From positions 64,835 to 128,834 of the forward strand of contig JBAZXG010000003.1 in the NCBI GenBank assembly GCA_041660005.1: a stretch of 64,000 nucleotides of DNA, read 5' to 3'. The notes under the pieces are model-generated. The model worked only from the letters and a program-made list of their open reading frames with translations. It was not told the origin of the DNA and made no database searches. Of the stretch, positions 15,915 through 43,184 are shown in pieces. Both the position numbers and the translations under genes were made by a program. Numbering within the stretch: position 1 is the first letter of the stretch; every line of letters starts with the position of its first letter. Source of the stretch: Patescibacteria group bacterium (GTDB taxonomy: Bacteria; Patescibacteriota; Patescibacteriia; GWA2-46-9).

Positions 15915-15924
15915 AAAAAACTTT

Positions 15925-15949: not shown

Positions 15950-16120
15950 AATATTCCTTTCCCTCCTTAGAGGACGTTCGAATTTTTCTTCGCTTCCACA
16001 ACTGTCATAGCCAGATTGTGGTTCTCGAAAAATTCTCACTCAGCAGTAGACCTTTCGATACAACTTCATGCCTGTCCGCCTTTGGCGGAGCTTTCTAGAA
16101 TAACTCTTTCCCTTGCCATT

Positions 16121-26049: not shown

Positions 26050-26113
26050 TTATGTTTAATTTATATATAAGTCCTCTTAATACAGTCTTCAAACCAAGTT
26101 TAACTTGGTACTC

Positions 26114-26171
26114 ATCTTGGCCCAGTCAAACTGGGCACACCTGCGTCAAACCAAGTTTGACTTGGTGGAGC
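26114..26171. repeat. 58-bp hairpin-rich repeat, copy A (abuts the 3' end of tRNA-Thr)
   Basis: ATCTTGGCCCAGTCAAACTGGGCACACCTGCGTCAAACCAAGTTTGACTTGGTGGAGC is identical base-for-base to 27282-27339. It contains the hairpins CCCAGT-CAA-ACTGGG and ACCAAGT-TTG-ACTTGGT. Confidence 0.95.
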
Positions 26172-26263: not shown

Positions 26264-27199
26264 TTAGTTATTTGGCTGTGTCCAGCAATGTATTCCGCTC
26301 GACATTGTTGCACAGAGTTTGTAGTGTTGTCCATCCTCAGAGGCGACATAAGTAAAACGTTTGAGCTGAATTTGATTGTCTTTATCTGTTGACTCGTCTA
26401 ATGTAATTTGCGCTTCAAGGAGTGTTTTCGGGTAAATCTTATATCTCAAGTAGAATAAATCAAGTTCAGCTCGCAAGAATTGACTCTTTCCCGATAACAT
26501 TTCGTCACTTGTATTAATTGAAACATTCACTTGTTGAATCATGTTAACAATTCCAAATGCAATTACTAAAACAACGACAATTATCGATACACCCGTAACA
26601 AATTGTTCAACTGCAAGGGATTTTCTGGATCGATTAATAATTATTTCTTTGTGCTGGAAACAATAAAGCAGCAGATAGTAAACGACAATAATATCAACCC
26701 CATGCAAACAAGTAAGATATGAATTGATTGAGTTGTAAGAAATAAGGAGATAGAGAAGAAAACCAAAAATATTGATTCCGGTAACCCAATTAACAATTTG
26801 TTTTGATCGGGTAGCATCAATTTGGCTTGTCTTAATTACACTATTTGTTGCAATCCAAATTGCAAACGAACTTGCCGAAAGATAAAGAAGTGCCACGAGT
26901 AGTAGTAGTGCTGCACGTGTTAGTTGCTGAGTAACGTCAGGAAGAAAAAAATTAACTAAGATACTGCCGAAGGTAAATACAAACGAACCGACAGCTAGTC
27001 GTGTAATTATTATGGTCCTTACTTGCCAGAATAAGCTTCGTTGAGATGGTAGGATGGGTGGTGTTGTAGGAGAAACTTCCATAAGGGTAAGGGTTATTTT
27101 CTTGGAGCGCTGCTTATCGCGAGACAATGACCTTATCATCAGGCAGTGGTTCATTCGATAACTCTGAGTACCGCAAACGTAATATTTATTGCTATCCAT
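26264..27199 (-). CDS. Hypothetical polytopic membrane protein with pilin-like C-terminal module
   Basis: 311-aa low-GC ORF with an uncertain start and about 5 hydrophobic helices. The last ~130 aa resemble a type IV pilin-like module (see findings). Confidence 0.5.
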   Translation of the reverse strand: MDSNKYYVCGTQSYRMNHCLMIRSLSRDKQRSKKITLTLMEVSPTTPPILPSQRSLFWQVRTIIITRLAVGSFVFTFGSILVNFFLPDVTQQLTRAALLLLVALLYLSASSFAIWIATNSVIKTSQIDATRSKQIVNWVTGINIFGFLLYLLISYNSINSYLTCLHGVDIIVVYYLLLYCFQHKEIIINRSRKSLAVEQFVTGVSIIVVVLVIAFGIVNMIQQVNVSINTSDEMLSGKSQFLRAELDLFYLRYKIYPKTLLEAQITLDESTDKDNQIQLKRFTYVASEDGQHYKLCATMSSGIHCWTQPNN

Positions 27200-27222: not shown

Positions 27223-27281
27223 ATACATAAAATATAATTACCTATCCCGTCAAACAAGACAGAATGTTTGACTTGCTAGGA

Positions 27282-27339
27282 ATCTTGGCCCAGTCAAACT
27301 GGGCACACCTGCGTCAAACCAAGTTTGACTTGGTGGAGC
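27282..27339. repeat. 58-bp hairpin-rich repeat, copy B (abuts the 3' end of tRNA-Gly)
   Basis: Identical to 26114-26171. Similarity continues in degenerate form for about 20 bp to the left (GTTTgACTTGcTA vs GTTTaACTTGgTA). Confidence 0.95.
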
Positions 27340-29235: not shown

Positions 29236-29296
29236 TGTATCTAAACGCCCGCTGTTTACTGAAATCACAATAATCGTTACTATAAGGCGCACCTGA

Positions 29297-29370
29297 TGGG
29301 GGATCGTCTAATGGTAGGACAGCGGCCTTTGAAGCCGTGAATCATGGTTCGAATCCATGTCCCCCAGCCA
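29297..29370 (+). tRNA. tRNA-Gln (anticodon UUG), CCA encoded
   Basis: TGGGGGA-TC-GTCT-AATGGTA-GGAC-A-GCGGC-CTTTGAA-GCCGT-GAAT-CATGG-TTCGAAT-CCATG-TCCCCCA-G-CCA. The U1-A72 pair is typical of bacterial tRNA-Gln. Confidence 0.92.
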
Positions 29371-29407
29371 AAAATCCTGGGCCCCCTTTACGGGGCTGAG
29401 GATTTTT
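29371..29407 (+). terminator. Hairpin terminator immediately after tRNA-Gln
   Basis: AAAATCCT-GG-GCCCC-CTTTAC-GGGGC-TG-AGGATTTT followed by T. Confidence 0.6.
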
Positions 29408-29418
29408 GATTGTAGGAG

Positions 29419-29681
29419 TATAATGGATTCGAACTTAGCATCACCCCGTGGCGGGTTTCTCGAGGGCCGAGGGGCCCTCGAAGTGGGGGTCGGGGTGAGG
29501 CGGTATGGTTCTAGGAGCTCCGCTAGCCGGCGGGGCGACGGAATCCTGTCCCCAGGTTGGAGATTTTTTGTTTGAGAGATACAATGAATTCGAAGCGGGA
29601 AGGTGTTCCGCCAGAGGCGGACAGGATGGGAAGCGAAGCGACTGGTTCTAGGCCCGTTTAACGGGCCGGAATCCATGTCCC
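29419..29681 (+). repeat. Two tandem GC-rich structured units carrying degraded copies of the tRNA-Gln 3' end
   Basis: Unit 1 is 29419-29553 and unit 2 is 29580-29681. Each reads TAyAAT-GrATTCGAA ... stable hairpin ... TGGTTCTAGG-hairpin-CGGAATCC(A)TGTCCC. Compare tRNA-Gln CATGGTTCGAATCCATGTCCCCCA. Confidence 0.6.
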
Positions 29682-29789
29682 TTCAACGAGCACCGGCGAA
29701 GTTGGTACAGAGCGCACCAGCGCGAATGTAATACTTTGCCAATGGACTATCTGCGTATAAGGCGGTTCGAATTGCTTGTTAATTGACCT

Positions 29790-30515
29790 ATGTTATTCAC
29801 GAAAAAAGAAATTTTAGATGAAATAAGACGTACCGCAGAAGAAAACGGGGGTATACCCTTAGGCATGGACAGGTTCAAAAAAGAAACTGGGATAGGCCCA
29901 TTTGACGTAAGCAGATATTGGCCACGCTTTGGTGATGCGATAAGTGAAGCTGGATTGACGCGAAACGAACGATGGACACGTTATTCTGACGATCTTTTAA
30001 TAGAGAAGTCAATTGAAAAAATAAGGAAGTATGGTAGGTACCCAACCTTGAATGAATTATTTGTGGAATTTAATCAGGGTGATGATTTTCCGTTTCACAT
30101 ATTCAAAAAACGTTCTCAACCTTACATGGTAAAGAAAATACTTGAATACTGTCATAGTAGAAACGGTTATGAAGATGTCATTCAGGCTTGTGAACCTATT
30201 CTTAAAAAATTGAACAGTAAGGATGACCTATATAGTGATACCAAAAAGACCGAAAAAATTGGTGAGGTTTATCTCTTTAAATCCGGTAAATACTATAAGA
30301 TTGGAAAAACAAATGATACCGTGCGACGTGGAAAAGAACTTCGAATTCAACTGCCTGAAAATTTAAAGCTAATTCATTCAATTAAAACTGATGACACAAG
30401 TGGTATTGAAACATATTGGCACAAAAGGTTTGAGGGTAAGAGGATGAACGGTGAATGGTTTGATTTAAGTGCAGCAGATATTAAATCCTTTAAAAGCTGG
30501 AGGCGTATAGCTTAG
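29790..30515 (+). CDS. GIY-YIG superfamily (T5orf172/MUG113-type) protein with two N-terminal homing-endonuclease-associated helical repeats
   Basis: N-terminal repeats KKEILDEIRRTAEENGGIPL...RFGDAISEAGL and a second degenerate copy. The C-terminus reads GEVYLFKSGKYYKIGKTNDTVRRGKEL...YWHKRFEGKRMNGEWFDL. Confidence 0.65.
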   Translation: MLFTKKEILDEIRRTAEENGGIPLGMDRFKKETGIGPFDVSRYWPRFGDAISEAGLTRNERWTRYSDDLLIEKSIEKIRKYGRYPTLNELFVEFNQGDDFPFHIFKKRSQPYMVKKILEYCHSRNGYEDVIQACEPILKKLNSKDDLYSDTKKTEKIGEVYLFKSGKYYKIGKTNDTVRRGKELRIQLPENLKLIHSIKTDDTSGIETYWHKRFEGKRMNGEWFDLSAADIKSFKSWRRIA

Positions 30516-30594
30516 GTTCATTTATTATCTTAAGGTAGGTTTCGCATTCCGAAGAGTATTGGATTAATTGTGCGTGTTTTAATGAAATTGTTAT

Positions 30595-31140
30595 ATGGAT
30601 GAGAAAAACGAAGAAAGACTAGCTCCAGATGGTCTGCCGAAGCATTTTAAGATTGAGTGGAATGAGCCATTTTCTGTCTCCACTGGATCAACACCAGGAT
30701 CGTATTCTTCTGTTTCGATTCCAGTTGATTCCACAAAGTTGAAATCGGCAAAAATAAACACAGGTGGTAGTGGCGGTGTGATATTCGAAGATACGCCAGT
30801 ATATAAGTTTAAAACTACAAATTTAAAAATTAAAGACGGTAACTCTTGGGCCCATGTACGTACAAAAGTTGATTCAAGGGGAGATTATATTGATGTAATT
30901 TTTGGAAATTCAATAAACCCTCGACATTCACACATAGGATTTGAATTATCAGCTCCGCTTTTTTTAGAAATGCGAAACAAAGGCACTATTAATACAGAAT
31001 CTGCCGCTGAGGAAGGTGTAGGAGTGACCGCAGGTTCGCTTAGCTTAAAGGATACTCCTACAGGGAAATTAGTAAGACTCGACTTCGCATTAAATCTAAG
31101 TAGTAATGAAATAGAGATAACTGATTTTATTTTTATTTAG
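30595..31140 (+). CDS. Hypothetical protein (cassette gene B)
   Basis: 181-aa soluble, beta-rich ORF in the low-GC block. No family recognised. Confidence 0.45.
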   Translation: MDEKNEERLAPDGLPKHFKIEWNEPFSVSTGSTPGSYSSVSIPVDSTKLKSAKINTGGSGGVIFEDTPVYKFKTTNLKIKDGNSWAHVRTKVDSRGDYIDVIFGNSINPRHSHIGFELSAPLFLEMRNKGTINTESAAEEGVGVTAGSLSLKDTPTGKLVRLDFALNLSSNEIEITDFIFI

Positions 31141-31152
31141 TGTTTAAAGACA

Positions 31153-31629
31153 ATGACAAATATAGCTTGGAATTTAAGAAGCATCGTAATTTATGAAAAA
31201 ATCACTAACAAAGAATCCGGAAATTCAGGAGAACAAGAGATTGTGGATCTTGTACCGTGTCCGAATTGCGGTAAGAAGTTGATGAAACTTCCCCCGAACT
31301 ATCCTTTATATGACGTTCAATGCACGGGGTGCTCTTTTCGTGCCCAAGTAAAGACAAACCAGAGCAAACCAAAGTCCGTCGTTTTTGGTGCAGGATGGCA
31401 AATTATGAACAAGGTGTTGAAGTCTGGTTATATGACACCGCCCCTATTTCTTAATTTTAAGTGGCTAGAAAAAAGCATTCAAAGACAGGAAGTCCGTTTT
31501 TATCCGTTTGTACCTAAAAAGAATCTCTCCAACTACCGTCTTTCTAATACAGCCAGACGCGCCAACTACGAAATGTTTACTTATACAGGGATGGACAAAC
31601 TTCCATATTTTTCAGTATTTAAAAAATGA
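31153..31629 (+). CDS. Zinc-ribbon PD-(D/E)xK-like nuclease, DpnI/Dam-replacing-family-like catalytic domain only (cassette gene C)
   Basis: CPNCGKKL...YDVQCTGCSFRAQVKT...GAGWQIMNKVL...PPLFLNF...LSNTARRANY is colinear with my recollection of the DpnI N-terminal domain. There is no winged-helix C-terminal domain. Confidence 0.5.
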   Translation: MTNIAWNLRSIVIYEKITNKESGNSGEQEIVDLVPCPNCGKKLMKLPPNYPLYDVQCTGCSFRAQVKTNQSKPKSVVFGAGWQIMNKVLKSGYMTPPLFLNFKWLEKSIQRQEVRFYPFVPKKNLSNYRLSNTARRANYEMFTYTGMDKLPYFSVFKK

Positions 31630-31662
31630 TAAGGTGTTTAGAAATTATAATTAGTGAATAAT

Positions 31663-32535
31663 ATGGATCAGTCTTCCGTGTTGGCTTTAGCAAGTTTATC
31701 AAAAGATATAGCACAGCTTAATTTAGGATACTTAGGAATATCAGTAGCAATTCTTGGTGCGCTTGGTGGGGTTTTTGTTTATTTTAACTTAAATCCCTTG
31801 AAAGAAAACTTAAGCAAACAAGAAAAGAAAATCGAAGATTTAAAAGCCGAAGCACACAGCTTATTAGATGAATCAAAAGTTCAATCTGAGAAAACACTTG
31901 AAGATTTTGCAATAAGTCAGTTTGATAAAACGAGCCTACTTCTTAAACAGCAAAAAAATGAAATTGACTTAGAGACAAAAAATAAGATACAAGATTCTCA
32001 TAGTTTGTTATCGGATAAAATTGAAAATATTTCAGAAAGTAAAGACCTGAAACTTAAAGAAATTATTCTTTCGGAGTCTAATAATAATTTAGCTATCCTA
32101 GACAAAAATCTAACCCTGAAAATTAGTACGACCAAAGAGGATGTTCTTAAAGAAATTAAGTTAGTGAATGCTGGGATAAATGCAAAAATTAAGGAATTAA
32201 GTGAAAAAGTCATAGAATTGCAGGTTTATAAATACAGTAAAGAAGGACAGATGGGTGCAATAATTTATTCTATTGAGTTGCTTGAAAATGCGATAGAAGA
32301 TTATTTTAAAACGAAAAAAGAACTTGTTAATAAGTTGGAAAATTCATCTGACGACAAGACGTTTGGGTGGAAAGTTAATTATAGGTTAGAGGGTTTAATA
32401 AAGGAAATTGGTGATTCCAAATTGGAGGAGGATGAAGTCAAAAAAATTCTTATACAAATATCAAAAATTGAAAATGAAAGTGTTTTTAAGGTTTTAGCTG
32501 GAGAACTTAAGAAAAAAGTTTTGTATAAAAATTGA
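31663..32535 (+). CDS. Single-pass membrane protein with long K/E-rich coiled coil (cassette gene D)
   Basis: TM helix LGYLGISVAILGALGGVFVYF, then about 240 aa of heptad-like K/E/L-rich sequence. GTG at 31654 is an alternative start. Confidence 0.5.
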   Translation: MDQSSVLALASLSKDIAQLNLGYLGISVAILGALGGVFVYFNLNPLKENLSKQEKKIEDLKAEAHSLLDESKVQSEKTLEDFAISQFDKTSLLLKQQKNEIDLETKNKIQDSHSLLSDKIENISESKDLKLKEIILSESNNNLAILDKNLTLKISTTKEDVLKEIKLVNAGINAKIKELSEKVIELQVYKYSKEGQMGAIIYSIELLENAIEDYFKTKKELVNKLENSSDDKTFGWKVNYRLEGLIKEIGDSKLEEDEVKKILIQISKIENESVFKVLAGELKKKVLYKN

Positions 32536-32590
32536 AGTTCCATTTTATCTGCAAACATACTAACTTGTAATAGATAATTTACCAATAAAT

Positions 32591-33538
32591 ATGGAAAATA
32601 TTGCAGAAAAATTCTTCAATTCCTTTACTAAAATGGAAGATATCGAAAAATTAATTAGCGAAGGAGAAACCGAAGGCCAATATCTAGAATGTAAAAGCCC
32701 TCAGGGTCCATATTTTGACAAAGGATTGAAATCACAGCTAGCAAAAGAACTCTCTGCTTTCGCTAATGCAGGTGGTGGGGTTATTTTATTTGGTGTTTCT
32801 ACCACAAAACATAAGCATTCTGAAACAGATGTTTTGTCTCAGATTGAAGAAGTGGGAGCAGTTAAAAAATTTAGAAAAGAACTTGACGTGATCACAACAA
32901 CCTTAATTGAACCATCTATAATATCTTGTAGGTCAAAAGTTATTTTTAGAAATCCTTCTGATTCTAGGGGAGTAGTAGTAACTTTTGTTCCTCCAACTCC
33001 TGGTGATCCAATTAGAAGTAACCTTGACCGTGAGTTTTATATAAGAATTGGGGATGATTCAAGCAAAATGCCATATGAAACCGTAAAAAAAATGTTTGCT
33101 GGGACAGCAGGTCCAGAATTATCAGCGTTGTTTAATGACAGATTAGTAAAGTTAGAAGGTGATGGATCATGGAAAATTCCAATAATTTTAAGTAACGAAT
33201 CTAGTGCTGCAGCCAAAGACACAGAAGTTTCAGTCACGGTAATAAATGGTAGTGCCTGTGAAACTATTAGTGGAGAAATCTTCAAGGATCAGTCAAATGT
33301 AAACCCTGGGTCAAAAGTATTTATGACTGATATCGATAAGCCAATTTTTAGGGGAAAGAACGTTGTGGTCGGCTATATAGTTGTAAAAATGAAAAAAGCA
33401 AAGTTTTATAAAAGAAATTTAAATCTCAAAATAGATATATTTGCTAGTAATATGAGGGCTAAAACATATACGATAACAATAAAACTCGCAAAAAAGGGCT
33501 TTTCTGTAATGAAAACTAAGTCTGAATATTTATACTAG
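32591..33538 (+). CDS. AlbA_2/Schlafen-type putative nucleic-acid-binding domain protein with unknown C-terminal domain (cassette gene E)
   Basis: EGETEGQYLECKSPQ...LAKELSAFANAGGGVILFGVS matches the AlbA_2 (PF04326-like) pattern as I recall it. The C-terminal ~170 aa are unassigned. Confidence 0.55.
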   Translation: MENIAEKFFNSFTKMEDIEKLISEGETEGQYLECKSPQGPYFDKGLKSQLAKELSAFANAGGGVILFGVSTTKHKHSETDVLSQIEEVGAVKKFRKELDVITTTLIEPSIISCRSKVIFRNPSDSRGVVVTFVPPTPGDPIRSNLDREFYIRIGDDSSKMPYETVKKMFAGTAGPELSALFNDRLVKLEGDGSWKIPIILSNESSAAAKDTEVSVTVINGSACETISGEIFKDQSNVNPGSKVFMTDIDKPIFRGKNVVVGYIVVKMKKAKFYKRNLNLKIDIFASNMRAKTYTITIKLAKKGFSVMKTKSEYLY

Positions 33539-33689
33539 GATCATACTCGAGGCGCTTTCTTTTGCCGTAACAAAAGAGTCAGCAATAACATTGTAAAGTA
33601 ACGAGTCAAAAGGTTAGTGCTCGAAAACGGCAGCAAAAATTCCTCCCTCCACGGTTGGAACTTTCCCCCTCGCGAGATACAATTTAAAC

Positions 33690-33935
33690 ATGCCTAAAAC
33701 AGCCCCATCTTTCACACATAAAGTTCCAGCGGACTTCCGAAGGGCTATTGGCTCTACCCCTCGCGCGAAAGCGGTATGGGATGATATCACTCCAATAGCA
33801 CGCAATGAGTGGATTTGCTGGGTAACATCCGGCAAAAAAGCCGAGACGCGAAATATCCGGATCGCAAAAGCACTTTCAAAACTAAGTGGAGGAATGCGCA
33901 GACCTTGCTGTTGGGCCAGCTGTCCGCACCGTTGA
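33690..33935 (+). CDS. YdeI/OmpD-associated family protein (short form)
   Basis: VPADFRRAIGSTPRAKAVWDDITPIARNEWICWVTSGKKAETRNIRIAKALSKL...RRPCCWASCPH is a typical YdeI C-terminal domain. Its GC is normal, unlike its neighbours. Confidence 0.7.
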   Translation: MPKTAPSFTHKVPADFRRAIGSTPRAKAVWDDITPIARNEWICWVTSGKKAETRNIRIAKALSKLSGGMRRPCCWASCPHR

Positions 33936-33973
33936 GAAAAACAGGTAAGTTTTCTGCCATAGTGGTAACAAAT

Positions 33974-34495
33974 ATGCAGCCCTATAGATTTAGTCCAATA
34001 GAAAATAAAGAACAGTTGTTAGAAGCTATAGAATATACGCATTTTAAATGTTTTGAGTTATGCAAAAAGAACTTTGGCAGATATCTTCCCGTTGCCGGTA
34101 ATATCGGAATATTTTCTCATTATGATGATGAGTATGAGTTTCTTACAAAGTTAAGAGAAGAACTAACTGAAAAGTCCGATAATTGGAACCATAAGTATTA
34201 CCGTCTTCTCGAGCCTATAAGAATTGCCGCAAAGGGTGATGTGCCTGATACTGTATATACTTATCTCTATATTCGTAAACCAGATAAGCATAAGGAAGTT
34301 GGCGATGTTGATTTTGTCTTGGGTCTCAATGAATTTAGTGAATTAAAAGACTCTTTACATCACAGCAAGGAAATCAAAGGTATAGAAGTATTCGACCGCG
34401 TTGACCTTGATCTAATTAAACTGTTCGACTCCGATACTGATGTCCTTTCTTTTATCGGGACGAAGAACATGACCGAAAATATACGACCATTATGA
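33974..34495 (+). CDS. Hypothetical protein
   Basis: ATG at 33974 inside ORF 33809..34495; the upstream part overlaps ydeI in another frame. Low GC. No family recognised. Confidence 0.4.
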   Translation: MQPYRFSPIENKEQLLEAIEYTHFKCFELCKKNFGRYLPVAGNIGIFSHYDDEYEFLTKLREELTEKSDNWNHKYYRLLEPIRIAAKGDVPDTVYTYLYIRKPDKHKEVGDVDFVLGLNEFSELKDSLHHSKEIKGIEVFDRVDLDLIKLFDSDTDVLSFIGTKNMTENIRPL

Positions 34496-34749
34496 CCCCA
34501 TACAAACACACGCAAATTGGATATCTGATGCTGGTTGTTACGTTTTGTGTGCTGGTGCTCTTCGCATGGGCGCAAATTACGGTTCGGCTTGAGCCGCCCT
34601 CTGCCGACTCTGGAGCAAATTTTGCCATTACTGCGATAATGGTATTAGTTCTGTTTATTGTAACCGATTTCCACCGTCAAAATAAGACCGGAATCATGTC
34701 CACGGGGGCTATGGCCTATACCGTGCTTATCCTCTTATTCTTGTGTTAG
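34492..34749 (+). pseudogene. Truncated duplicate of the 5' part of gene 36310..36774
   Basis: The first 168 nt (34492-34659) are about 89% identical to 36310-36477 by hand alignment with 18 mismatches. The reading frame then diverges and stops after 85 codons. Confidence 0.6.
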
Positions 34750-34779
34750 TTCCAATTATAGTATATAATTTAAACCAAA

Positions 34780-34799
34780 GGTACCCATATTTGGGTACC
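34780..34799. promoter_or_regulatory. Inverted repeat (candidate AbiEi operator) upstream of abiEi
   Basis: GGTACCCA-TATT-TGGGTACC, 48 nt upstream of the ATG at 34847 and just downstream of a TATAGTATATAAT stretch. Confidence 0.45.
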
Positions 34800-34846
34800 A
34801 ATATCGTACAAATCATCAATTTACTTGTAGTGAGCAAAGTCGCACT

Positions 34847-35494
34847 ATGGAAAAAGACTACATTTTAGACTTAATGAGATCAAAGAAGACTGTCTTTACT
34901 TTTAAAGACCTTATTTTGCTTTGGGGAGAATCTGACGTCAATTTTGTTAAGAAGAAGATTCATCGCTATGTTAAAGCTGGCAAAATGAACGCTGTACGCA
35001 GAGGCATTTACTCCAAAGATAAAAATTACGATAAATACGAGTTAGCTACAAAAATATATACTCCTTCATACGTCAGCATGGAGACGGCTTTAGGCGCGGC
35101 CGGAATTACTTTTCAGCTGTACGGGCAGATTTTTATTGCGTCATATACCACCAAAGAAATTGAGTGTGATGGGCAGAAATATTCTTATAAGAAAATAAAG
35201 GATACCATTCTCACCAATCAGGCTGGTATAGAGTCAAGAGAAAATTACAGTATCGCTTCGCGCGAAAGAGCATTTTTGGATGTTATCTATCTCAATAAGG
35301 ATTATCATTTTGATAATCTCTCGGCTTTGAATTGGGAAAAAGTATACGAAATCTTACCCATTTATCGTGGTAATAAACGTATGGCTAAGATGGTGAAAAT
35401 GTACCATAAAGCATTTTCTGCCGACTTGTCCGCCGAAGCCGCAGCGCAGGCGGGAGGAGGTCCGCCTCTAGCAGAAAGAATTCCAACTAGATAA
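34847..35494 (+). CDS. AbiEi-family type IV toxin-antitoxin antitoxin
   Basis: The N-terminal wHTH-like segment (FTFKDLILLWGESDVNFVKKKIHRYVKAGKMNAVRRGIYS) and its position directly upstream of an AbiEii gene support the call. Confidence 0.75.
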   Translation: MEKDYILDLMRSKKTVFTFKDLILLWGESDVNFVKKKIHRYVKAGKMNAVRRGIYSKDKNYDKYELATKIYTPSYVSMETALGAAGITFQLYGQIFIASYTTKEIECDGQKYSYKKIKDTILTNQAGIESRENYSIASRERAFLDVIYLNKDYHFDNLSALNWEKVYEILPIYRGNKRMAKMVKMYHKAFSADLSAEAAAQAGGGPPLAERIPTR

Positions 35495-35501
35495 TAATCA
35501 T

Positions 35502-36206
35502 ATGGCTCTTGATACCGCAAAGCATAAAAATGTTCTCATAAAAATCCTCAAGGATATCTATACTGACGCAACCATTAGTCCGATCTTAGGATTTAAGGGT
35601 GGGACAGCTGCTACATTTTTCTATAACCTCGACCGCTTCTCGGTGGATTTGGATTTTGATTTACTTGATTCAGACAAAGAGAACTACGTGTTTGGTCGTG
35701 TTAAAGCAATTATTGAGAATTATGGCAAATTAAAAGAGTCACGAAAGAAAAGATTCAATCTTTTTTATATTCTTTCTTATGACGACAAAGATATTAACGC
35801 CCAAAACGTCAAGGTAGAAATTAATCGCCGTGAATTCGGTTCAAAATATTCGGTGGAATCATTTCTTGGTATCTCGATGCAGGTGATGGTGAAAGAAGAT
35901 ATGGTTGCACATAAACTTTGTGCTATGTACGAACGGATTGGTAAGACGAATCGCGACATTTTTGATGTTCAGTTTTTCCTTTCGCACGACTGGCCTGTTA
36001 ATAAAAAAATTGTTGAGAATCGTACAGGTGTCTCGTATGCAGAATTTTTGAAAAAGTGTATTGATGTAATGGAAAAATTCGATGACAGCAATGTACTTTC
36101 CGGTATGGGTGAATTACTCACTGAGAAACAGAAAGCATGGGCAAAAACAAAGCTTAAGTCAGAGGCGTTGTTTTTGCTTAGGTTAGCTCTGGAGAAGGAA
36201 AAGTAA
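35502..36206 (+). CDS. AbiEii/AbiGii-family nucleotidyltransferase toxin (DUF1814)
   Basis: LGFKGGTAATFFYNLDRFSVDLDFDLLD is the characteristic GGTA...R.S.D.D motif block; 234 aa. Confidence 0.85.
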   Translation: MALDTAKHKNVLIKILKDIYTDATISPILGFKGGTAATFFYNLDRFSVDLDFDLLDSDKENYVFGRVKAIIENYGKLKESRKKRFNLFYILSYDDKDINAQNVKVEINRREFGSKYSVESFLGISMQVMVKEDMVAHKLCAMYERIGKTNRDIFDVQFFLSHDWPVNKKIVENRTGVSYAEFLKKCIDVMEKFDDSNVLSGMGELLTEKQKAWAKTKLKSEALFLLRLALEKEK

Positions 36207-36309
36207 ACTTATATGCCAAATATAATCGCCGACAAAACCAAAAAACAGACTTACTATAAGTGCACTTCACTCACTATCCTCGGCAATAAGGTGATCACAG
36301 AATAGATTT

Positions 36310-36774
36310 ATGACTTCCTACAAACACACGCAAATTGGATATTTGATGCTGGTTGTCACGTTTTGTGTGCTGATGCTTTTCGCATGGGCTCAAATTACGG
36401 CCCGGCTTGAGCCACCCTCTGTCGACTCTGGAGCAAATTTTGCCGTTACGAGCATCATGGTATTAGTTCTGTTTATTCTTTCATCATTTGCGACGCTCAC
36501 AGTGTCGATTGATGAAAATTATCTTCGAGTTAAATTTGGCTATGGTATTTTCGCCAGGAAGTTTGAATTGAATCAGATAGCTTCAGTTAAAACAGTAAAG
36601 AATCACTGGTACTACGGATGGGGGATAAGGTTGTGGTTCTGGCCCAAAATGTGGATTTTTAATGTTTCCGGTTTTGATGCAGTCGAGCTCGTTATGAAAA
36701 ATGGAAAAATCTACCGCATAGGAACAGACGTTCCAGGAGAGCTTGAGACTGCGATCAAAGCGGTGTTAAAGTAA
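36310..36774 (+). CDS. Small membrane protein (two TM helices plus a soluble C-terminal domain), intact paralogue of 34492..34749
   Basis: 154-aa ORF beginning MTSYKHTQIGYLMLVVTFCVLMLFAWAQI, with a C-terminal beta-rich domain. No family recognised. Confidence 0.55.
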   Translation: MTSYKHTQIGYLMLVVTFCVLMLFAWAQITARLEPPSVDSGANFAVTSIMVLVLFILSSFATLTVSIDENYLRVKFGYGIFARKFELNQIASVKTVKNHWYYGWGIRLWFWPKMWIFNVSGFDAVELVMKNGKIYRIGTDVPGELETAIKAVLK

Positions 36775-36783
36775 TTTGGAATT

Positions 36784-37203
36784 GTGCCCACCAATAAACA
36801 AAAAATTCTAGAGTTCATCAAAGCACATCATATTGCCGTTGTTGCCACGACGGATACTGAAAAACCTGAAGCAGCAGTTGTTGAGTACGGCGAGACCGAT
36901 GAACTGGAACTCATTATTGATACCTTCATTTCTTCACGAAAGAGCAAAAATATTTTGCATAACCCAAACGTCGCTCTTGTCATCGGTTGGGACAATAACA
37001 TAACCCTTCAGTATGAAGGTGAGGCGACCGAACTAAAAGGTAGTGAGCTAGAAAAAAGCAAGGAGATATATTTTAAAAAGAACCCGCGTGCAAAAGAGTG
37101 GGACGGTCGTGAAGGAATAGTATATTTTAAAATCATTCCAAAATGGATCCGATATTCTGATTTGAATAAACACCCATGGGAAGTTTTTGAGATCAATCTA
37201 TAA
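36784..37203 (+). CDS. Pyridoxamine 5'-phosphate oxidase family (FMN-binding split barrel) protein
   Basis: IAVVATTDTEKPEAAVVEYG...NPNVALVIGWDNNITLQYEGEA...YFKIIPKWIRYSD fits the PNPOx-like pattern. GTG start. Confidence 0.65.
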   Translation: MPTNKQKILEFIKAHHIAVVATTDTEKPEAAVVEYGETDELELIIDTFISSRKSKNILHNPNVALVIGWDNNITLQYEGEATELKGSELEKSKEIYFKKNPRAKEWDGREGIVYFKIIPKWIRYSDLNKHPWEVFEINL

Positions 37204-37282
37204 ATGATTACTGGGTTATTAAACCTCTTTGATTTAGTACAATTTACAGGGTACACTCAGTTTCGATTGATAGGGTCAAAAT

Positions 37283-38215
37283 ATGATTGAAAAAAGAGGA
37301 CAATTTAATCCAGAGGTAAAGCTACCACCCGAAACTGAAAGCGACATGGCTTCAATTCGTTTGGAATTCTTTCGCCATGACGATAAAGAATCTGAAGCAG
37401 GTGACCCTTCGGTTCGTCTATCTCAACGTGGTCGGGTACATGCCACCGAAGCTGGCCTAACTAAAAATGCGCACGCGGAAGTCGCTTTAGCTTATGGCTC
37501 GTTAAAGGATAGAACAGCCGAAACAGCATTGCGACATGCGTTGGCGCGGCGAGAGGAAATTCAGCCAACGCACTCTTTGGAGGATATTCAGAGAATTGTT
37601 GATCAAGAATTAAATGTTGGGAAAAAAGGTAAAAAACTTATTAAAAACAGAGTATTACCGCAATTAAATTTGAATAATCGTGGTACGGCGCAATATCGTC
37701 AACAGTGGTTGCAGCACTACAAAGAAAGTAAGGATGCCTTGCGGTTTGTTTATCACGATAGTGATCGGTTAGCACAAGAGTTAAATGACAAAAAATCAAC
37801 TTCTTATTCCCGAGCAGCTGGTAATGTGGCTGAGTTAATTCAAAAGTATATTGGCATCCTGCCACGCTGGCAGGAAATTGTTAAACAGAATCCCGATAAG
37901 TACAAAAGATTCCGCGATGAGTTGCAGAGGTTTTTTTGTTCTCATCACGCCGTATTAGAGCCGTTCTTAATGAAAGTTATTGAACGGACCGAAGGGGAAG
38001 AGGGGGTTGAAAAATTTATTGAGTCGTTGCCAAACAAAAATGGGTTTGGTTTAAGTGAAGGTTATTCGGTTACCATAACAGGGCACGATGGTCAGCCCAC
38101 TGTTACTTTAAAGTACGGCGACAAGGAGTGGGTTATACCGACAGAAATGGTGAACGAAATTGTTCGAGAAAGAGATGAATTCAATCATCTGATAGATAAT
38201 AAATCTTCAGTATGA
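37283..38215 (+). CDS. Hypothetical protein, possible divergent histidine-phosphatase-superfamily member
   Basis: N-terminal IRLEFFRHDDKES...LSQRGRVHATEAG resembles the RHG...LT.G..QA motif block. The remaining ~200 aa are unassigned. Confidence 0.35.
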   Translation: MIEKRGQFNPEVKLPPETESDMASIRLEFFRHDDKESEAGDPSVRLSQRGRVHATEAGLTKNAHAEVALAYGSLKDRTAETALRHALARREEIQPTHSLEDIQRIVDQELNVGKKGKKLIKNRVLPQLNLNNRGTAQYRQQWLQHYKESKDALRFVYHDSDRLAQELNDKKSTSYSRAAGNVAELIQKYIGILPRWQEIVKQNPDKYKRFRDELQRFFCSHHAVLEPFLMKVIERTEGEEGVEKFIESLPNKNGFGLSEGYSVTITGHDGQPTVTLKYGDKEWVIPTEMVNEIVRERDEFNHLIDNKSSV

Positions 38216-38742
38216 AATTTATTTTTGTAAGGCACGGAGAAACGGATTGGAACAAAAAAGGTTTGTTGCAAGGTCATAATGACACAGAGTTAAACAAAAC
38301 GGGCATACAACAAGCGGTTCAGTTGTTGCCCACTCTGGAAAAATATCATTTTGACGTTATATACTCGTCATCCCTAAAACGTGCTTACGAAACAGCAAAA
38401 ATAATAAGTAATCACTTTAATGTGCCCATAATTATCAGCGATCACCTAAAAGAAAAGAATTTTGGCTCACTTGCGGGTAAAAGCTGGCAAGAAAACAGCG
38501 AAGCGACAGGAAAAGATTTAAAAACTATCGATCGGCGTCAGCAGTACGACTATAGTCCATATGGTGGCGAAACAGCAGAGGAAGTTAAGGCAAGAGTTAA
38601 AAAGTTTATTGAAGAGGTAAAAATAAGCGGTTACAAACAACCATTGGTTATTAGTCACGGAGGTATCATTAGAGTGTTGCGTCCTTATTCCGATGAGGTA
38701 CCGAAAGTTATGAATGCCTCGGTTCATCAATTTGATCTTTAG
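38212..38742 (+). CDS. Histidine phosphatase family protein (phosphoglycerate-mutase-like)
   Basis: FIFVRHGETDWNKKGLLQGHNDTELNKTGIQQA...SSSLKRAYETA...VISHGGIIR is canonical. The ATGA start overlaps the upstream stop. Confidence 0.85.
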   Translation: MKFIFVRHGETDWNKKGLLQGHNDTELNKTGIQQAVQLLPTLEKYHFDVIYSSSLKRAYETAKIISNHFNVPIIISDHLKEKNFGSLAGKSWQENSEATGKDLKTIDRRQQYDYSPYGGETAEEVKARVKKFIEEVKISGYKQPLVISHGGIIRVLRPYSDEVPKVMNASVHQFDL

Positions 38743-38751
38743 TGAATAATA

Positions 38752-39210
38752 ATGCGTACCATTAACCGAGACATCGTTTCTGTTTTGTTGCTTTCCAAAG
38801 AGGGTAAGTTACTTATTGGGCTGCAGTCTTTAAATGAATATAATGTTTACCCAGGATGTTGGGGTATTATCGGCGGAGGTGTCGACAACGGTGAAGACCA
38901 AAGAACTGCACTTAATCGCGAAGTATTAGAAGAGTCTGGTGTTGATATTCAAAAATACCATGCGGAGTTGATTGATGTAGCCGGTGGTGAAGCAGAAAAA
39001 ACTTTAAGAAACACGAATGAACGCGTTCTTGTAAAAATGAAGTTCCATGTTTACAGGGTCGTCATGGACGATAAAAACTCAAACGATATCACGGTAACGT
39101 TAAACGATGAGCACTCTGCATATCAGTGGCTATATTCATCTGAATTGAGTCAATTAAAACTTGCGCCTCCATCAGAAGCTTTATTTAAAAAACTTGGATA
39201 TTTGCAATAG
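38752..39210 (+). CDS. NUDIX hydrolase
   Basis: Nudix box GGGVDNGEDQRTALNREVLEESGV (G-x5-E-x7-REVxEExG). Confidence 0.85.
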   Translation: MRTINRDIVSVLLLSKEGKLLIGLQSLNEYNVYPGCWGIIGGGVDNGEDQRTALNREVLEESGVDIQKYHAELIDVAGGEAEKTLRNTNERVLVKMKFHVYRVVMDDKNSNDITVTLNDEHSAYQWLYSSELSQLKLAPPSEALFKKLGYLQ

Positions 39211-39221
39211 TGTAATTATCA

Positions 39222-39509
39222 ATGATCTCCCTACTCAAAAAACCGAGTGCCTGGATTCCAATAGTTATTCCGCTACTCTTTTTTGCCTATATAGTTATTG
39301 CAATTTCTTTTTTTGAAATAGTGCGAGAGAAAGACGAAGGAGTTGGTGCGCACCTTTTTCAGTTGTGGCTCCTCATTGAACCGTTTATGGTTGGATATTT
39401 TGCTATTCGTTGGTTGCCGCGTGCACCGAAACAAGCAGTTACGATTCTAGTCATTCAGGTTCTCGCTGCACTTTTGCCTATATCAACAGTTTTCGCTTTT
39501 AAGCTATAA
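39222..39509 (+). CDS. Small membrane protein, hypothetical
   Basis: 95-aa ORF with three hydrophobic helices. Confidence 0.4.
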   Translation: MISLLKKPSAWIPIVIPLLFFAYIVIAISFFEIVREKDEGVGAHLFQLWLLIEPFMVGYFAIRWLPRAPKQAVTILVIQVLAALLPISTVFAFKL

Positions 39510-39520
39510 AGAACGAAACT

Positions 39521-40348
39521 ATGAAAGTTCTGTTACTCGGAGCAAATAGTTATGTCGGTTCACGAGTTTATTTAGAACTAAAAAAGGATCATGAAGTAGT
39601 TGGCACATTTCACAACAAAAAACTTTTTACGAATCTCGTCTTTCTTGATGTTACCGATAGGCAAGCGGTAATGGATCTTATTATTAAAGAAAAACCGAAC
39701 GTAATCGTTCACTGTGCAAATCAGGCGAGTAATAGGTGGTGCGAAGAACATTTAGAAGATGCCGTTAAGATTAATCGGGAGGCAACAAAATTTATTGTAG
39801 AGGGGGCGAATATTGTTGACTCAAAAGTAATTTATGTTTCTTCCTTCGCGGCGATTTCTCCGACTAACTTGTATGGAATAATGAAAGAGGAGTCAGAACG
39901 GATGATTAAAACGGTTCGTTCGGGTTACGCAATAATCCAGCCGGGGGTAATAGTTGGTATTAGTCCAAAGATAAAAAAGGAAGATGGATTTTTTAGTTCT
40001 CTTATGGAAAATTTAAATGACAATAAGCCGGCCGAGTATGACAATATCAAAAAGTATCAACCAACCTATTTGGGTCATATTTGCGAAGTAATCAAGTTGA
40101 TTTTAGAAAGAGGTCTTTGGAATAAAACATTTCCCGTAGCATCACTAGGCGTTAAAACAAAGTATGAATTAGCAAAAGACATCTTATCTCCTTTTGGAAT
40201 AACAGTAGAAGAAGTTGAAGGTAGTCACACGATTACTAAGAAAAAGACACAAGGCCTAAAGGAACTAAACGAATCGAGTCTGCCGGTCTACACATATATG
40301 CAGACCATTGAGAAGGTTGTCGAAGAAATTAAAGCCAGTAACTGTTGA
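39521..40348 (+). CDS. NAD-dependent epimerase/dehydratase (extended SDR, RmlD-like)
   Basis: N-terminal Rossmann MKVLLLGANSYVGSRVY and a YxxxK-type region (NLYGIMKEESE). Confidence 0.65.
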   Translation: MKVLLLGANSYVGSRVYLELKKDHEVVGTFHNKKLFTNLVFLDVTDRQAVMDLIIKEKPNVIVHCANQASNRWCEEHLEDAVKINREATKFIVEGANIVDSKVIYVSSFAAISPTNLYGIMKEESERMIKTVRSGYAIIQPGVIVGISPKIKKEDGFFSSLMENLNDNKPAEYDNIKKYQPTYLGHICEVIKLILERGLWNKTFPVASLGVKTKYELAKDILSPFGITVEEVEGSHTITKKKTQGLKELNESSLPVYTYMQTIEKVVEEIKASNC

Positions 40349-40351
40349 ACT

Positions 40352-40963
40352 ATGAAAATCTTCCTCGCCACAACCAACGGTGGGAAAATTGAGCGGCTTA
40401 CGAAACTACTAAAACAGATCAACGTAGACATTGAAGTTTATACTCCGGCAGATTTACACATAGAAATTCCCGAAATTGTGGAAACTGGAAAATCTTTACT
40501 CGAGAATGCAAAGACTAAGGCCCGCGCATATTTTGGCAAAGTTCAAATGCCTATTCTTGCAAACGACACAGGTTTTTATGTAGAGGGGGAGGGGTTCATT
40601 GATGCGCCTAAACGGGAAGCGCTTGGAGAGGCCAGCGAGGGTACGTTGTCCTTAGAAGAGATCTCTAAAAAAATGGCAGATTTTTGGAAAGGTATAGCCA
40701 TTAAACACGGCGGCAAAGTAGACGCGTCATGGATTGAATCTTTTGTGGTTCTCTACCAGGACGGCACAATGAAAGAAGCTGAGTCCCGTAGAGATGTTGT
40801 TTTGACGAACCAAGAGTTTGGTACACCGCACGTACAAATGCCGGTACGTGCCCTCTATTACTCAAAAGTCACTAATAAACCCGCCATTCAACATACTAAA
40901 GAAGAGGAGATTCAAGAGATGAAGCCGATCATAGATGCTTTAGTCAATGTGTTAGAATATTGA
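40352..40963 (+). CDS. Non-canonical purine NTP pyrophosphatase (Ham1/RdgB/ITPase family)
   Basis: MKIFLATTNGGKIERL...ETGKSLLENAKTKA...DTGFYV is a Ham1-like pattern. Confidence 0.65.
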   Translation: MKIFLATTNGGKIERLTKLLKQINVDIEVYTPADLHIEIPEIVETGKSLLENAKTKARAYFGKVQMPILANDTGFYVEGEGFIDAPKREALGEASEGTLSLEEISKKMADFWKGIAIKHGGKVDASWIESFVVLYQDGTMKEAESRRDVVLTNQEFGTPHVQMPVRALYYSKVTNKPAIQHTKEEEIQEMKPIIDALVNVLEY

Positions 40964-41029
40964 TTTTGGAAGCGTAGGGATGGTATTTGGCGCTTGACAG
41001 TAAATAACCGTTGTATATACTATAGATAT

Positions 41030-41305
41030 ATGAAAACTATTATCAACGTGAAAGCAGATAGGGACACAAAAATTAAAGCGCAACGTTTAGCAAAAGAGCT
41101 TGGATTACCTCTAAGCGTTGTTATTAACCAGTATTTAAAGGACTTTATACAGCAGGGTAAAATTACATTTTCGCAACCCTTGATGCCAAATACCAGAACT
41201 CGAAAGATGCTTGATCGGGTATTGGCTGACATCAAGAAAGGTAAGAATGTATCTCAGAGCTTTAACAATGCAAAGGATTTGATTGCTGACTTAAGAAAGA
41301 AGTAA
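41030..41305 (+). CDS. RelB/DinJ-family type II antitoxin
   Basis: ATG at 41030 in ORF 40994..41305. MKTIINVKADRDTKIKAQRLAKELGLPLSVVINQYLKDF is a ribbon-helix-helix DinJ pattern. The stop overlaps the toxin start. Confidence 0.75.
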   Translation: MKTIINVKADRDTKIKAQRLAKELGLPLSVVINQYLKDFIQQGKITFSQPLMPNTRTRKMLDRVLADIKKGKNVSQSFNNAKDLIADLRKK

Positions 41306-41565
41306 TGTTGGTGCGTTATCACCGAGACTTTAAGAAGCAGTTTCAGAAATTAACTTTAAAGCAACAAAGCCAGTTTGATGAAAGGTTGGCCATTTTTAGC
41401 AATGATCCTTTTGCGTCGCAGTTGAATAATCATTCATTGCGGGGTGTTTACCAGGGCTGTCGCAGTATAAATATTTCCGGTGATCTACGAGTGATCTATG
41501 TTGCTGACAATGAAGGCGTTGCGTTACTTATAGCCATTGGAACGCATAGCCAGCTTTATGGGTAG
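41305..41565 (+). CDS. RelE/YafQ-family type II toxin (mRNA interferase)
   Basis: 86 aa with FKKQFQKL...HSLRGVYQGCRSINISGDLRVIY...IGTHSQLY, the typical RelE/YafQ pattern. Confidence 0.8.
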   Translation: MLVRYHRDFKKQFQKLTLKQQSQFDERLAIFSNDPFASQLNNHSLRGVYQGCRSINISGDLRVIYVADNEGVALLIAIGTHSQLYG

Positions 41566-41567
41566 CT

Positions 41568-42113
41568 ATGATTAAAGTTGTAACTGTTCATGGCAGGTTC
41601 CAGCCGCCGCTACATAAGAATCACTGGAACTATATTAAAGCAGCTTTTGGCGTTGCAGAAAAAGTTATTATTCTTATCACTAACCCCAACCTGTCTGAAA
41701 AAGCTGTACCTGAAGCTGAACACAGAAATAAAGCTGATAATAATCCGTTGTCGTACGATGAGAGAGTAAAAATCTTTAAATCTTTTTTTGACAACATTGG
41801 CATCGCAAAAAATAGGTATGAATTCAAACCTTTTGATATTACCGACGAGAAGGAGTGGAGGAAGTTAGACAAGGGCACTCCAAATATGGTTAACGTGTAT
41901 AGTGACTGGAGTAATTCGAAGCTAGAAAAATTTAAAACACATGATCTTAAGGTTATTCGACTAGATCTTCAGCCGTTGGACGGTGTATCTGGAACACGTA
42001 TTCGTGAAATAATCTGGCGAAATATTGACGCATCTCAGATGCGAAATGAGTTGTTAAAAGCAGGGTATATGGAAGAAGCAATTCCAGGTCTTTTTGAAGT
42101 ATTGGGTTATTAG
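41568..42113 (+). CDS. Cytidylyltransferase-fold nucleotidyltransferase, NMN adenylyltransferase-like
   Basis: VHGRFQPPLHKNH (variant of GRFQP.H.GH) and a C-terminal SGTRIRE (ISSTxxR-like) motif. Confidence 0.55.
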   Translation: MIKVVTVHGRFQPPLHKNHWNYIKAAFGVAEKVIILITNPNLSEKAVPEAEHRNKADNNPLSYDERVKIFKSFFDNIGIAKNRYEFKPFDITDEKEWRKLDKGTPNMVNVYSDWSNSKLEKFKTHDLKVIRLDLQPLDGVSGTRIREIIWRNIDASQMRNELLKAGYMEEAIPGLFEVLGY

Positions 42114-42135
42114 TAAGAAGTGATATAATACTTCT

Positions 42136-43182: not shown

Positions 43183-43184
43183 GT

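Follow-up and report, generated by a model that had tools for sequence, protein, structure and literature searches.

The 64,000-nt stretch of Patescibacteria DNA analysed here (the window) carries a tRNA-Gln gene, behind which lie two related, GC-rich, hairpin-forming units, W1 and W2. The window genome was judged to be that of a probable relative of Candidatus Uhrbacteria within the Patescibacteria (candidate phyla radiation, CPR), because of its FtsX homologues (the FtsX gene ends at 29235). About 400 nt after the tRNA-Gln terminator are non-coding, with a G-rich plus strand and a GC content of up to 0.70, compared with about 0.45 in the surrounding DNA, and a low-GC defence island starts at 29790 (Table 1). 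Calls of tRNA-Gln and of RNA families were made with ARAGORN and Rfam 15, at the gathering threshold and also at E≤10; the significance of folds is given as z-scores, and hairpin excess was judged against shuffled sequences. Both units, which had been reported in an initial annotation, are real, lie where it had placed them, and were given the extents listed in Table 1. Its statement that this stretch holds no credible open reading frame (ORF) was borne out, as the only ORFs, at 29308-29676 (minus strand) and 29357-29575 (plus strand), lack homologues save antisense-tRNA-Gln matches. The complete family comprises five units in three genomes: the two in the window, two at locus L005 (units A and B, here L5A and L5B), and one in a Candidatus Liptonbacteria metagenome-assembled genome (MAG; L046).

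The 5′ motif of both window units, ATGrATTCGAA, is an inverted copy of the tRNA T-arm. The W1 copy, ATGGATTCGAAC, is a 12/12 reverse complement of GTTCGAATCCAT in tRNA-Gln, a match overlooked in the initial annotation; in each unit, the inverted T-arm is thus continuous and the direct one interrupted. The 3′ end of the units reads ...GAATCCATGTCCCCCAGCCA; it had been proposed to mimic the T-arm and acceptor end with a hairpin in the T-loop, and the insertion was indeed found exactly between C56 and G57 in both W1 and W2. A complete module consists, in order, of a bidirectional terminator hairpin, the inverted T-arm copy, a GC-rich hairpin body of type I or type II, the direct T-arm split by a hairpin of variable length, and a copy of the acceptor 3′ strand. 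The conserved core spans approximately 110-125 nt, or 140-175 nt with the flank. Within the 64 kb, TGGTTCTAGG occurs exactly twice (29506 and 29643), as does TAYAATGRATTCGAA (29419 and 29580). A search for perfect GC-rich hairpins (stem length 6 bp or more) returned 19 records in the window, with some loci being counted twice, compared with 1-8 in shuffles; six of the 19 represent three distinct hairpins inside the 420 nt after tRNA-Gln.

Table 1. Coordinates of the tRNA-Gln gene, the units and the adjoining features in the window
Feature	Position	Strand	Remarks
tRNA-Gln(UUG), CCA encoded	29297-29370	+	ARAGORN, Rfam (64.9 bits); proposed insertion target
Long imperfect palindrome, ~90 nt	29346-29435		tRNA T-loop to 3′ end, A-run, terminator hairpin, T-run, diverged acceptor-strand complement, perfect inverted T-arm
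Intrinsic terminator of tRNA-Gln	29380-29406	+	GGCCCC/GGGGCT stem and T-run; part of the ‘alpha’ flank
Unit W1, type I body	29419-29557	+	covariance model match, 84.8 bits
W1 -10-like TATAAT	29419-29424		
W1 inverted T-arm	29423-29434		ATGGATTCGAAC
W1 helix	29438-29448 / 29491-29501		GCATCACCCCG/CGGGGTGAGGC; encloses the inner hairpin
W1 inner 9-bp hairpin	29460-29481		TCGAGGGCC/GGCCCTCGA
W1 split T-arm	29506-29511		TGGTTC
W1 inserted hairpin	29512-29540		
W1 GAATCC	29541-29546		
W1 acceptor-like segment	29547-29555		TGTCCCCAG
Truncated ‘beta’ flank between W1 and W2	29556-29579	+	terminator 3′ half and T-run (GTTGGAGATTTTTTGTTTGAGAGA)
Unit W2, type II body	29580-29686	+	covariance model match, 98.9 bits
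W2 -10-like TACAAT	29580-29585		
W2 inverted T-arm	29584-29594		ATGAATTCGAA
W2 hairpin	29607-29621		TCCGCC-AGA-GGCGGA
W2 split T-arm	29643-29648		TGGTTC
W2 inserted hairpin	29649-29668		GGCCCG-TTTAA-CGGGCC at 29651-29667
W2 end	29669-29681		GAATCCATGTCCC; repeats tRNA 29351-29363
Further tRNA-Gln gene remnant	29756-29772	+	TATAAGGCG (copy of upstream 9-mer 29281-29289) fused to GGTTCGAAT (T-loop copy, 29764-29772); edge of the low-GC island
T5orf172/MUG113 protein with HNH_repeat	29790-30515		first gene of the low-GC defence island
Low-GC defence cluster	29790-36206		T5orf172/MUG113, DpnI-like methyl-directed endonuclease, Schlafen AlbA_2, AbiEi/AbiEii pair; several ORFs without family match

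Other structural details of the initial annotation fared variously. The closing of W1 by GGATTC and GAATCC was seen in the minimum-free-energy fold, and the additional GGTTCGAAT fragment near the defence island was found again. The unit starts with TAyAAT and GrATTCGAA are present as described, with a qualification: a promoter scan gave a -35/-10 match for W2 only, and the hexamer is absent in the Liptonbacteria copy. The stable nested hairpins were likewise confirmed (the W1 9-bp stem inside a helix, and the W2 TCCGCC hairpin), whereas the significance of the single-unit folds is modest, with z-scores of only -2.3 for isolated W1 and -1.8 for W2. The strongest structure of the region is instead the long palindrome that reaches from the tRNA T-loop into W1 (minimum free energy -50.1 kcal/mol, z -7.25; the L005 equivalent, z -8.61). 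In this palindrome the T-arm is paired, the acceptor region is mismatched, and the A- and T-runs are paired around the terminator stem; the mismatched section coincides with the repeated segment ATGTCCCCCAGCCA. The inverted T-arm has two possible partners, namely the split T-arm of its own unit, which gives a three-way junction, or the T-arm upstream.

The nearest relatives carry tRNA-Gln without units. At the four closest-relative loci (FtsX 83% identical; gene content mutually near-identical), FtsE-FtsX-tRNA-Gln is followed by CCATCTTGAGATAGG and no unit, as judged from the sequence itself for two of the four and from ARAGORN and gene tables for all four. At L005 (FtsX 52% identical), the order after tRNA-Gln is unit A, a spacer of 180 nt, a remnant of a tRNA end with a terminator, unit B, and then ...ATGTCCCCCAGCCA joined directly to TCTTGAGATAGG. 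Here ATGTCCCCCAGCCA is a 14-nt direct repeat of the tRNA end, so that the displaced repeat typical of genomic islands is found here, with one copy closing the tRNA and the other closing the block, and TCTTGAGATAGG is the native flank found in the unit-free relatives. Because it is bounded by this 14-nt repeat, the L005 block of approximately 510 nt is read as an insertion. The tRNA-Gln of the window is 100% identical to that of L005, and this allele differs from that of the closest relatives: the T-stem CATGG/CCATG is common to both unit-bearing tRNAs and to the units themselves, whereas the unit-free loci L001 and L051 have CCAGG/CCTGG. Downstream of tRNA-Gln, every genome compared has a variable region. 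Window and L001 lose synteny at tRNA-Gln and regain it at 46483 (an aldo-keto reductase gene), and the tRNA thus borders a variable region, which measures 17 kb in the window (29371-46480) and 1.6 kb in L001 (10447-12030).

Flanks and bodies have been reshuffled between the two loci. Window and L005 are 86-88% identical in the post-tRNA flanks and 78% identical in the units, compared with 47% in the DNA upstream of the tRNA, which is unalignable and at about the level of unrelated sequence; identities so far above those of neutral intergenic DNA indicate transfer or selection. The ‘alpha’ flank, which holds the tRNA-Gln terminator in the window, is 88% identical to the flank of L005 unit B, and the truncated ‘beta’ flank between W1 and W2 has its homologue in L005 in the intact terminator that separates tRNA-Gln from unit A; the first half of this terminator is missing in W2. 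The ‘alpha’ flank is joined to a type I body in W1 and to a type II body in L5B, the ‘beta’ flank to type II bodies in W2 and L5A, and the joint between flank and body lies at the inverted T-arm. The L005 spacer is a paralogue of the trailer that is conserved after tRNA-Lys in the window genome and in L005, and its copy ends ...TTCCCCCAGCCA; its presence in the unit array indicates that trailers move between tRNA loci. The tRNA-Lys trailer module itself (AAAAAACTTTAAGGAAAACC..GGTTTTCCTTAATATTCCTTTCCCTC...) was located at 15916-16120 in the window and at 4505-4640 and 11303-11480 in L005, with one paralogue inside the L005 tRNA-Gln array.

Elsewhere in the window, tRNA-Thr and tRNA-Gly (26098-26170 and 27266-27338, both on the minus strand) are each followed by a near-identical segment of approximately 72 nt that comprises the discriminator, CCA, and a two-hairpin trailer. 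These copies flank a 1.1-kb low-GC segment with a 311-aa ORF (26264-27199, minus strand) without a Pfam match. In L005, the two tRNA genes are about 150 nt apart and their trailers differ. The 1.1-kb segment looks like another insertion at a tRNA 3′ end.

Comparison of W1 with the Liptonbacteria unit gave signs that the fold has been selected. Stretches of 12-35 nt are invariant (GATTCGAAC, AGCATCACCCCG, GGGGGTCGGGGTGAGGC, GGTTCTAGGA, and GCGACGGAATCCT), three pairs of the inner 9-bp hairpin differ, each with compensation, and the T-loop hairpins differ in length by 13 nt. In the T-loop hairpin of the type II units, one pair shows covariation (UA to GC); L5B contains several broken pairs, and its fold has a z-score of -0.46. 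The inverted T-arm is a perfect complement in all units, with a diverged acceptor complement next to it. The proposed check by folding and covariation thus yielded compensatory hairpin changes, but it did not separate the competing folds: in the five-unit alignment, both the three-way junction and an extended T hairpin show approximately 90% pairing, and the two are inseparable by covariation because the paired columns are nearly invariant. RNA and DNA parameters gave similar z-scores on either strand (-2.7 to -4.7 on both strands with DNA parameters), which assigns the fold to neither a strand nor a type of molecule.

The unit family is rare, as pattern scans and a covariance model returned only the five units. 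A pattern scan of a one-genome-per-species collection gave 36 matches, of which 35 were chance matches and one was the Liptonbacteria copy. Scans of metagenome contigs returned only L005 and L046 again, plus chance matches, and five scans of viral contigs returned chance matches only. In the window and 11 related loci, the covariance model built from the five units recovered the known copies only. A word-indexed search through the spurious ORFs returned only proteins antisense to tRNA-Gln, and a full HMMER search gave one weak, probably spurious match. A second, degenerate type II unit in L046 and a shared ‘X’ segment upstream of its Liptonbacteria unit were considered and dropped, with a local score of 20 against a shuffle mean of 17.5 and maximum of 25. 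An empty site for the Liptonbacteria locus was sought through HtpX homologues; the contigs of close relatives end shortly past HtpX, and those of more distant ones have other neighbours. The contigs of close Liptonbacteria relatives (L055 and L056) break off 50-150 nt past HtpX, in a hairpin-rich intergenic region homologous to L046 5400-5560, which suggests that this region is repetitive or variable.

Several related sequences were noted outside the family. The hairpin TTCCGCCAGAGGCGGACA, identical in W2 and L5A, is found between genes, just past a stop codon, in four low-GC viral contigs from IMG/VR (L071-L074), one of which has a sample accession close to that of L005. In L052 (1860-1955) and L053 (1330-1430), the intact gene is preceded by partial tRNA-Gln 5′ fragments whose D-loop carries small GC hairpins (CCCCGCGAGCGGGACAG; TCCGCCAATTGGCGGA), and L053 also contains TCCGCCTCTGGCGGA with a T-run, which is the W2 hairpin in reverse orientation. 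In other metagenomes, many unrelated predicted proteins (P0073-P0089) end ...WLPDMDSNHDSRLQRPLSYH, which is tRNA-Gln translated in antisense; the source of one of them labels it a site-specific DNA recombinase, and several others have its conserved C-terminal region. The genes belong to unrelated integrated elements and run at their 3′ ends into tRNA-Gln.

W1 and W2 are best explained as copies of one small non-coding module, which would be passed horizontally between Patescibacteria and build up 3′ of tRNA-Gln. We tentatively regard the units as miniature or decayed attachment-site modules left by serial recombination within ATGTCCCCCAGCCA at the tRNA 3′ end, with a probability of roughly 0.45. 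This origin is suggested by the presence/absence polymorphism, the target-end repeat followed by native flank, the serial repeats, the mosaicism, the above-neutral conservation, and the position at the boundary of a variable region; at the level of sequence comparison, the polymorphism, the direct repeat with native flank, the reshuffled flanks and bodies, the above-neutral conservation, and the preserved hairpins are established. Further weight is lent by the tRNA-Lys trailer copy in the L005 array, the T-stem allele common to unit-bearing tRNAs and units, the insert between tRNA-Thr and tRNA-Gly, the palindrome, and the lack of a conserved gene partner. The modules would be reduced integrative elements of the kind of cis-mobilizable elements (CIMEs), added one by one via site-specific recombination within ATGTCCCCCAGCCA. 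In each event, the tRNA would remain intact and acquire a new terminator, while a non-functional copy of the T-arm and acceptor end would be pushed outward. The oppositely oriented T-arm copies might serve as recombinase-binding arms that pair mutually, or the inverted copy might pair with the T-arm of the tRNA; the paired stem would then imitate the target duplex, with the crossover segment in its mismatched part. We infer a recombinase and a role for the fold, and the modules may or may not still be active; the putative enzyme would act in trans or have been lost, because none is encoded nearby.

A first reading offered in the initial annotation, that the units are attachment-site remnants of serial integrations, is thus retained in so far as they are absent in the nearest relatives, the L005 block ends in the 14-nt repeat and native flank, and the downstream region is variable. 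Its other part, that they are plain scars, does not fit a module that recurs in three distant genomes with 86-88% identical flanks and compensated hairpins, and for which no integrase-bearing parent was found. A series of observations also weighs against the attachment-module explanation as a whole. The ORFs scanned between 29790 and 46474 (nearly all coding-strand, i.e., plus-strand, ORFs of at least 95 aa, seven of them without a Pfam match) gave no domain of an integrase, transposase, or other recombinase, and neither did the ORF scanned beside the L005 and L046 units, which leaves integration without an enzyme. Scans of viral, genome, and metagenome sequences returned no integrase-bearing parent element with a unit. 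Of the features of CIMEs, the repeats and the gene loss fit, and neither mobilisation nor a related integrase-bearing element was found in these scans. In the window, the native flank was not found, only the unit ends act as repeats, and no distal tRNA-end repeat was found, including at the right boundary of the 17-kb region; the Liptonbacteria copy has a different tail and no tRNA within the available sequence. Since all five units have the T-loop split by a hairpin, this hairpin was already present in the ancestor of the family and did not arise as a late inactivating lesion; neither it nor an inverted T-arm is required by an ordinary double-stranded attP, and the compensatory hairpin changes are not explained by a protein that binds duplex DNA. 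The family, finally, is known from only five copies in three genomes.

The conserved T-loop split, the obligatory inverted T-arm, and the compensated hairpins, which misfit a plain scar, recall folded single-stranded attachment sites. By this analogy, the units might be a structure-specific recombination site, in which folded single-stranded DNA forms a stem from the antisense and the split sense T-arm that mimics the tRNA target, with the hairpin at the crossover centre, much as in CTXphi attP(+) or integron attC; gene-less mini-cassettes, and the islands that follow them, would be captured at tRNA-Gln by a recombinase acting in trans. We rate this variant as rather improbable.

The main rival of the attachment-module explanation, although a doubtful one, is that the units are autonomous tRNA-like small RNAs carried on mobile DNA. 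Transcription of each would begin at its own TAyAAT promoter and stop at the hairpin and T-run behind it, and the RNA would fold as a three-way junction or as a tRNA-like body without the anticodon arm, serving in trans as a mimic of the T-arm and acceptor or as a decoy of a tRNA-binding enzyme or nuclease. The type I units of two lineages, the Candidatus Uhrbacteria relative and the Candidatus Liptonbacteria MAG, combine invariant stretches, three compensatory pairs, and a stem of variable length, which is the usual signature of a selected fold, and in the type II consensus fold an acceptor-like stem, GGGG/CCCC, is combined with a D-like hairpin and a long T hairpin. All four units of the window and L005 have a terminator and a -10-like hexamer before them and a hairpin with a T-run after them, and the plus strand is G-rich with G-U pairs. 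Transcription starting approximately 7 nt past the hexamer would, however, lose the 5′ strand of the closing stem, W1 is without a -35 match, and the Liptonbacteria copy has no hexamer at all. The broken pairs and z-score (-0.46) of L5B, the nearly equal folding of both strands and with RNA or DNA parameters, the inseparability of junction and extended T hairpin, the absence of an Rfam match, and the existence of only five copies likewise argue against a small RNA. That the units are instead inert debris, functionless partial duplications of the tRNA-Gln 3′ end and terminator that arose by palindrome extension, template switching, or illegitimate recombination and are now decaying, is unlikely. 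Such decay is visible in L5B and in the half-terminator of W2; other tRNA-Gln fragments lie nearby (TATAAGGCG fused to GGTTCGAAT), related loci hold 5′ fragments with D-loop hairpins upstream of intact genes, and an inverted T-arm is the expected product of snap-back extension of the terminator palindrome. Debris would not be expected, however, to confine and compensate the divergence between window and Liptonbacteria in the hairpins while leaving 12-35-nt stretches identical, to keep the inverted T-arm perfect in all units beside a diverged acceptor complement, or to preserve flanks at 86-88% identity where neutral intergenic DNA is unalignable.

The strength of the palindrome, which is the foremost structure of the region and is kept in both genomes with a unit after the tRNA (z -7.25 and -8.61), could point to a cis-acting 3′ trailer of tRNA-Gln, in which the inverted T-arm would pair with the T-arm and acceptor strand in read-through RNA, thereby controlling tRNA maturation or strengthening termination and shielding the island from tRNA-driven transcription. 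This is highly improbable: the inverted T-arm lies beyond the terminator T-run and would therefore rarely be co-transcribed with the tRNA, W2, L5B, and the Liptonbacteria unit keep the motif without an intact T-arm upstream, and the arrangement is absent from close relatives. Hardly credible is a further proposal, that the units are regulatory or guide RNAs of the downstream cassette, i.e., of the T5orf172 nuclease or the defence island. It draws on adjacency in the window alone, and the units at L005 and L046 have unrelated neighbours. The three loci are bordered by the T5orf172 defence island, by a 405-aa protein of unknown function with restriction-modification genes, and by HtpX with a PaaX-like gene; no protein family was found to be shared among these neighbours, which removes the link to the cassette that formed part of the second reading in the initial annotation. 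Nor was there a conserved neighbour gene, reverse transcriptase, ToxN-like protein, or Nop-domain protein of the kind that would mark a type III antitoxin, a retron, or a guide-RNA array. Within the defence island, the AbiEi ORF ends in the GC-rich stretch gtccgccgaagccgcagcgcaggcgggaggaggtccgcctctagc (35420-35480), which encodes an unusual C-terminal tail and may represent one more insertion of a GC hairpin.

The tRNA likeness proposed in the same second reading stands for the T-arm and the acceptor 3′ strand only. The bodies show no significant resemblance to the tRNA 5′ half, and tRNA models reject the units: neither ARAGORN nor the Rfam tRNA family (RF00005, even at E≤10) matches them, only the true tRNA-Gln scoring, and a search of the units against Rfam as a whole places them in no family at that limit. 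A whole-tRNA pseudogene was rejected, since local alignments of all five bodies with tRNA-Gln positions 1-51 scored within the shuffle range, and the likeness of GGGG-TTC..GGACA to the tRNA 5′ half is at chance level. The best non-tRNA match in Rfam, Actinomyces-1, reached 28.5 bits against a threshold of 39.1 (E 0.016 on 701 nt), and a pairing that it needs is absent in the Liptonbacteria copy. Transfer-messenger RNA (tmRNA), in one piece or permuted, was found by ARAGORN and Rfam in none of the window, L005, and L046. Hammerhead, retron, bridge-RNA, TIGR, and split-tRNA identities were dropped on inspection, with no core motif or partner protein.

Patescibacteria have tiny genomes, in which the gain and loss of islands are poorly understood. 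At this tRNA-Gln hotspot, the boundary with variable and defence DNA is marked by very small non-coding modules common to distant lineages. Should they prove to be active attachment sites, the modules would point to a recombination system in these bacteria that recognises the DNA of a T-arm itself, possibly in folded form, and would offer a sequence handle to locate the edges of islands in CPR metagenomes; as small RNAs, they would represent an undescribed form of T-arm mimicry. Five copies are a thin base, and the present value of the finding is that of a lead, not a result.

Among known systems, tRNA-like RNAs without an anticodon arm, such as the tRNA-like domain of tmRNA, YrlA and other Y RNA-like molecules, and viral tRNA-like structures, also join a T-arm and acceptor strand to unrelated helices, and the type II consensus fold, with its acceptor-like stem, D-like hairpin, and T hairpin, is reminiscent of them. 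The units differ in their interrupted T-loop, in the antisense T-arm at their 5′ end, and in an acceptor stem of at most 4-6 pairs, which is lost in the Liptonbacteria copy; ARAGORN and Rfam gave null results. Miniature inverted-repeat transposable elements (MITEs) and repetitive extragenic palindromic (REP) sequences are likewise small and non-coding, with inverted terminal motifs and GC-rich hairpins, and hairpins of the forms TCCGCC-loop-GGCGGA and CCCG-loop-CGGG recur in the loops of other tRNA-Gln fragments and in viral contigs. In place of many dispersed copies, however, the units are present in one or two copies per genome (two found by the covariance model in the 64 kb, and one or two per contig in the collection scans), without the usual target-site duplication, and their terminal motifs copy an arm of the target tRNA. 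The unit palindromes fall in the size range of integron attC sites. As in arrays of gene-less integron cassettes, imperfect palindromes follow one another, each closing a short cassette at its 3′ end, with structure kept more than sequence, and the outer boxes contain GAAC...GTTC. The boxes read TTCGAAC and GTTCTAG, in contrast to the R″/R′ consensus RYYYAAC/GTTRRRY, type II bodies are not one long hairpin, no integrase was found among the scanned neighbours, both the IntI gene and the attI site are absent, and a tRNA serves as the anchor of the array.

In the CTXphi attP(+) site used by XerCD, attP1 and attP2 are inverted, lie approximately 90 bp apart, one with an enlarged centre, and pair as a forked hairpin; integration regenerates one target, leaves dead copies, and can produce tandem arrays (PMC3089051, PMC3442271). 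By analogy, the inverted T-arm copies of the units lie 50-75 nt apart, one with an enlarged centre, and if paired, would form a target-imitating stem with an unpaired central part. Their target, however, is the end of a tRNA gene and not dif, the enlarged centre is a hairpin of 16-29 nt, and there are no filamentous-phage genes or Xer-binding sequences. A further parallel is offered by islands at tRNA genes, where foreign DNA that enters the 3′ part of the gene restores it and leaves a displaced copy of its end at the far boundary (PMC4383910). Tandem arrays form when new elements integrate beside decayed ones that have lost their integrase (PMC5704250); such tandem accretion at tRNA genes has been described (PMC5704250, PMC4383910), and arrays of target-end repeats have a precedent (PMC3146451). 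The L005 14-nt repeat with native flank, the absence of the units in relatives, and the serial target-end repeats agree with tRNA islands and CIMEs. The units depart from these in being only 140-175 nt long, without genes and without an integrase in the scanned neighbourhood, in a displaced T-arm split by a conserved hairpin, in an inverted T-arm in every module, and in a module fold conserved across different Patescibacteria lineages. The locus is, in kind, a known one, with target-end repeats or mini-elements at a tRNA integration hotspot; its conserved architecture is unusual.

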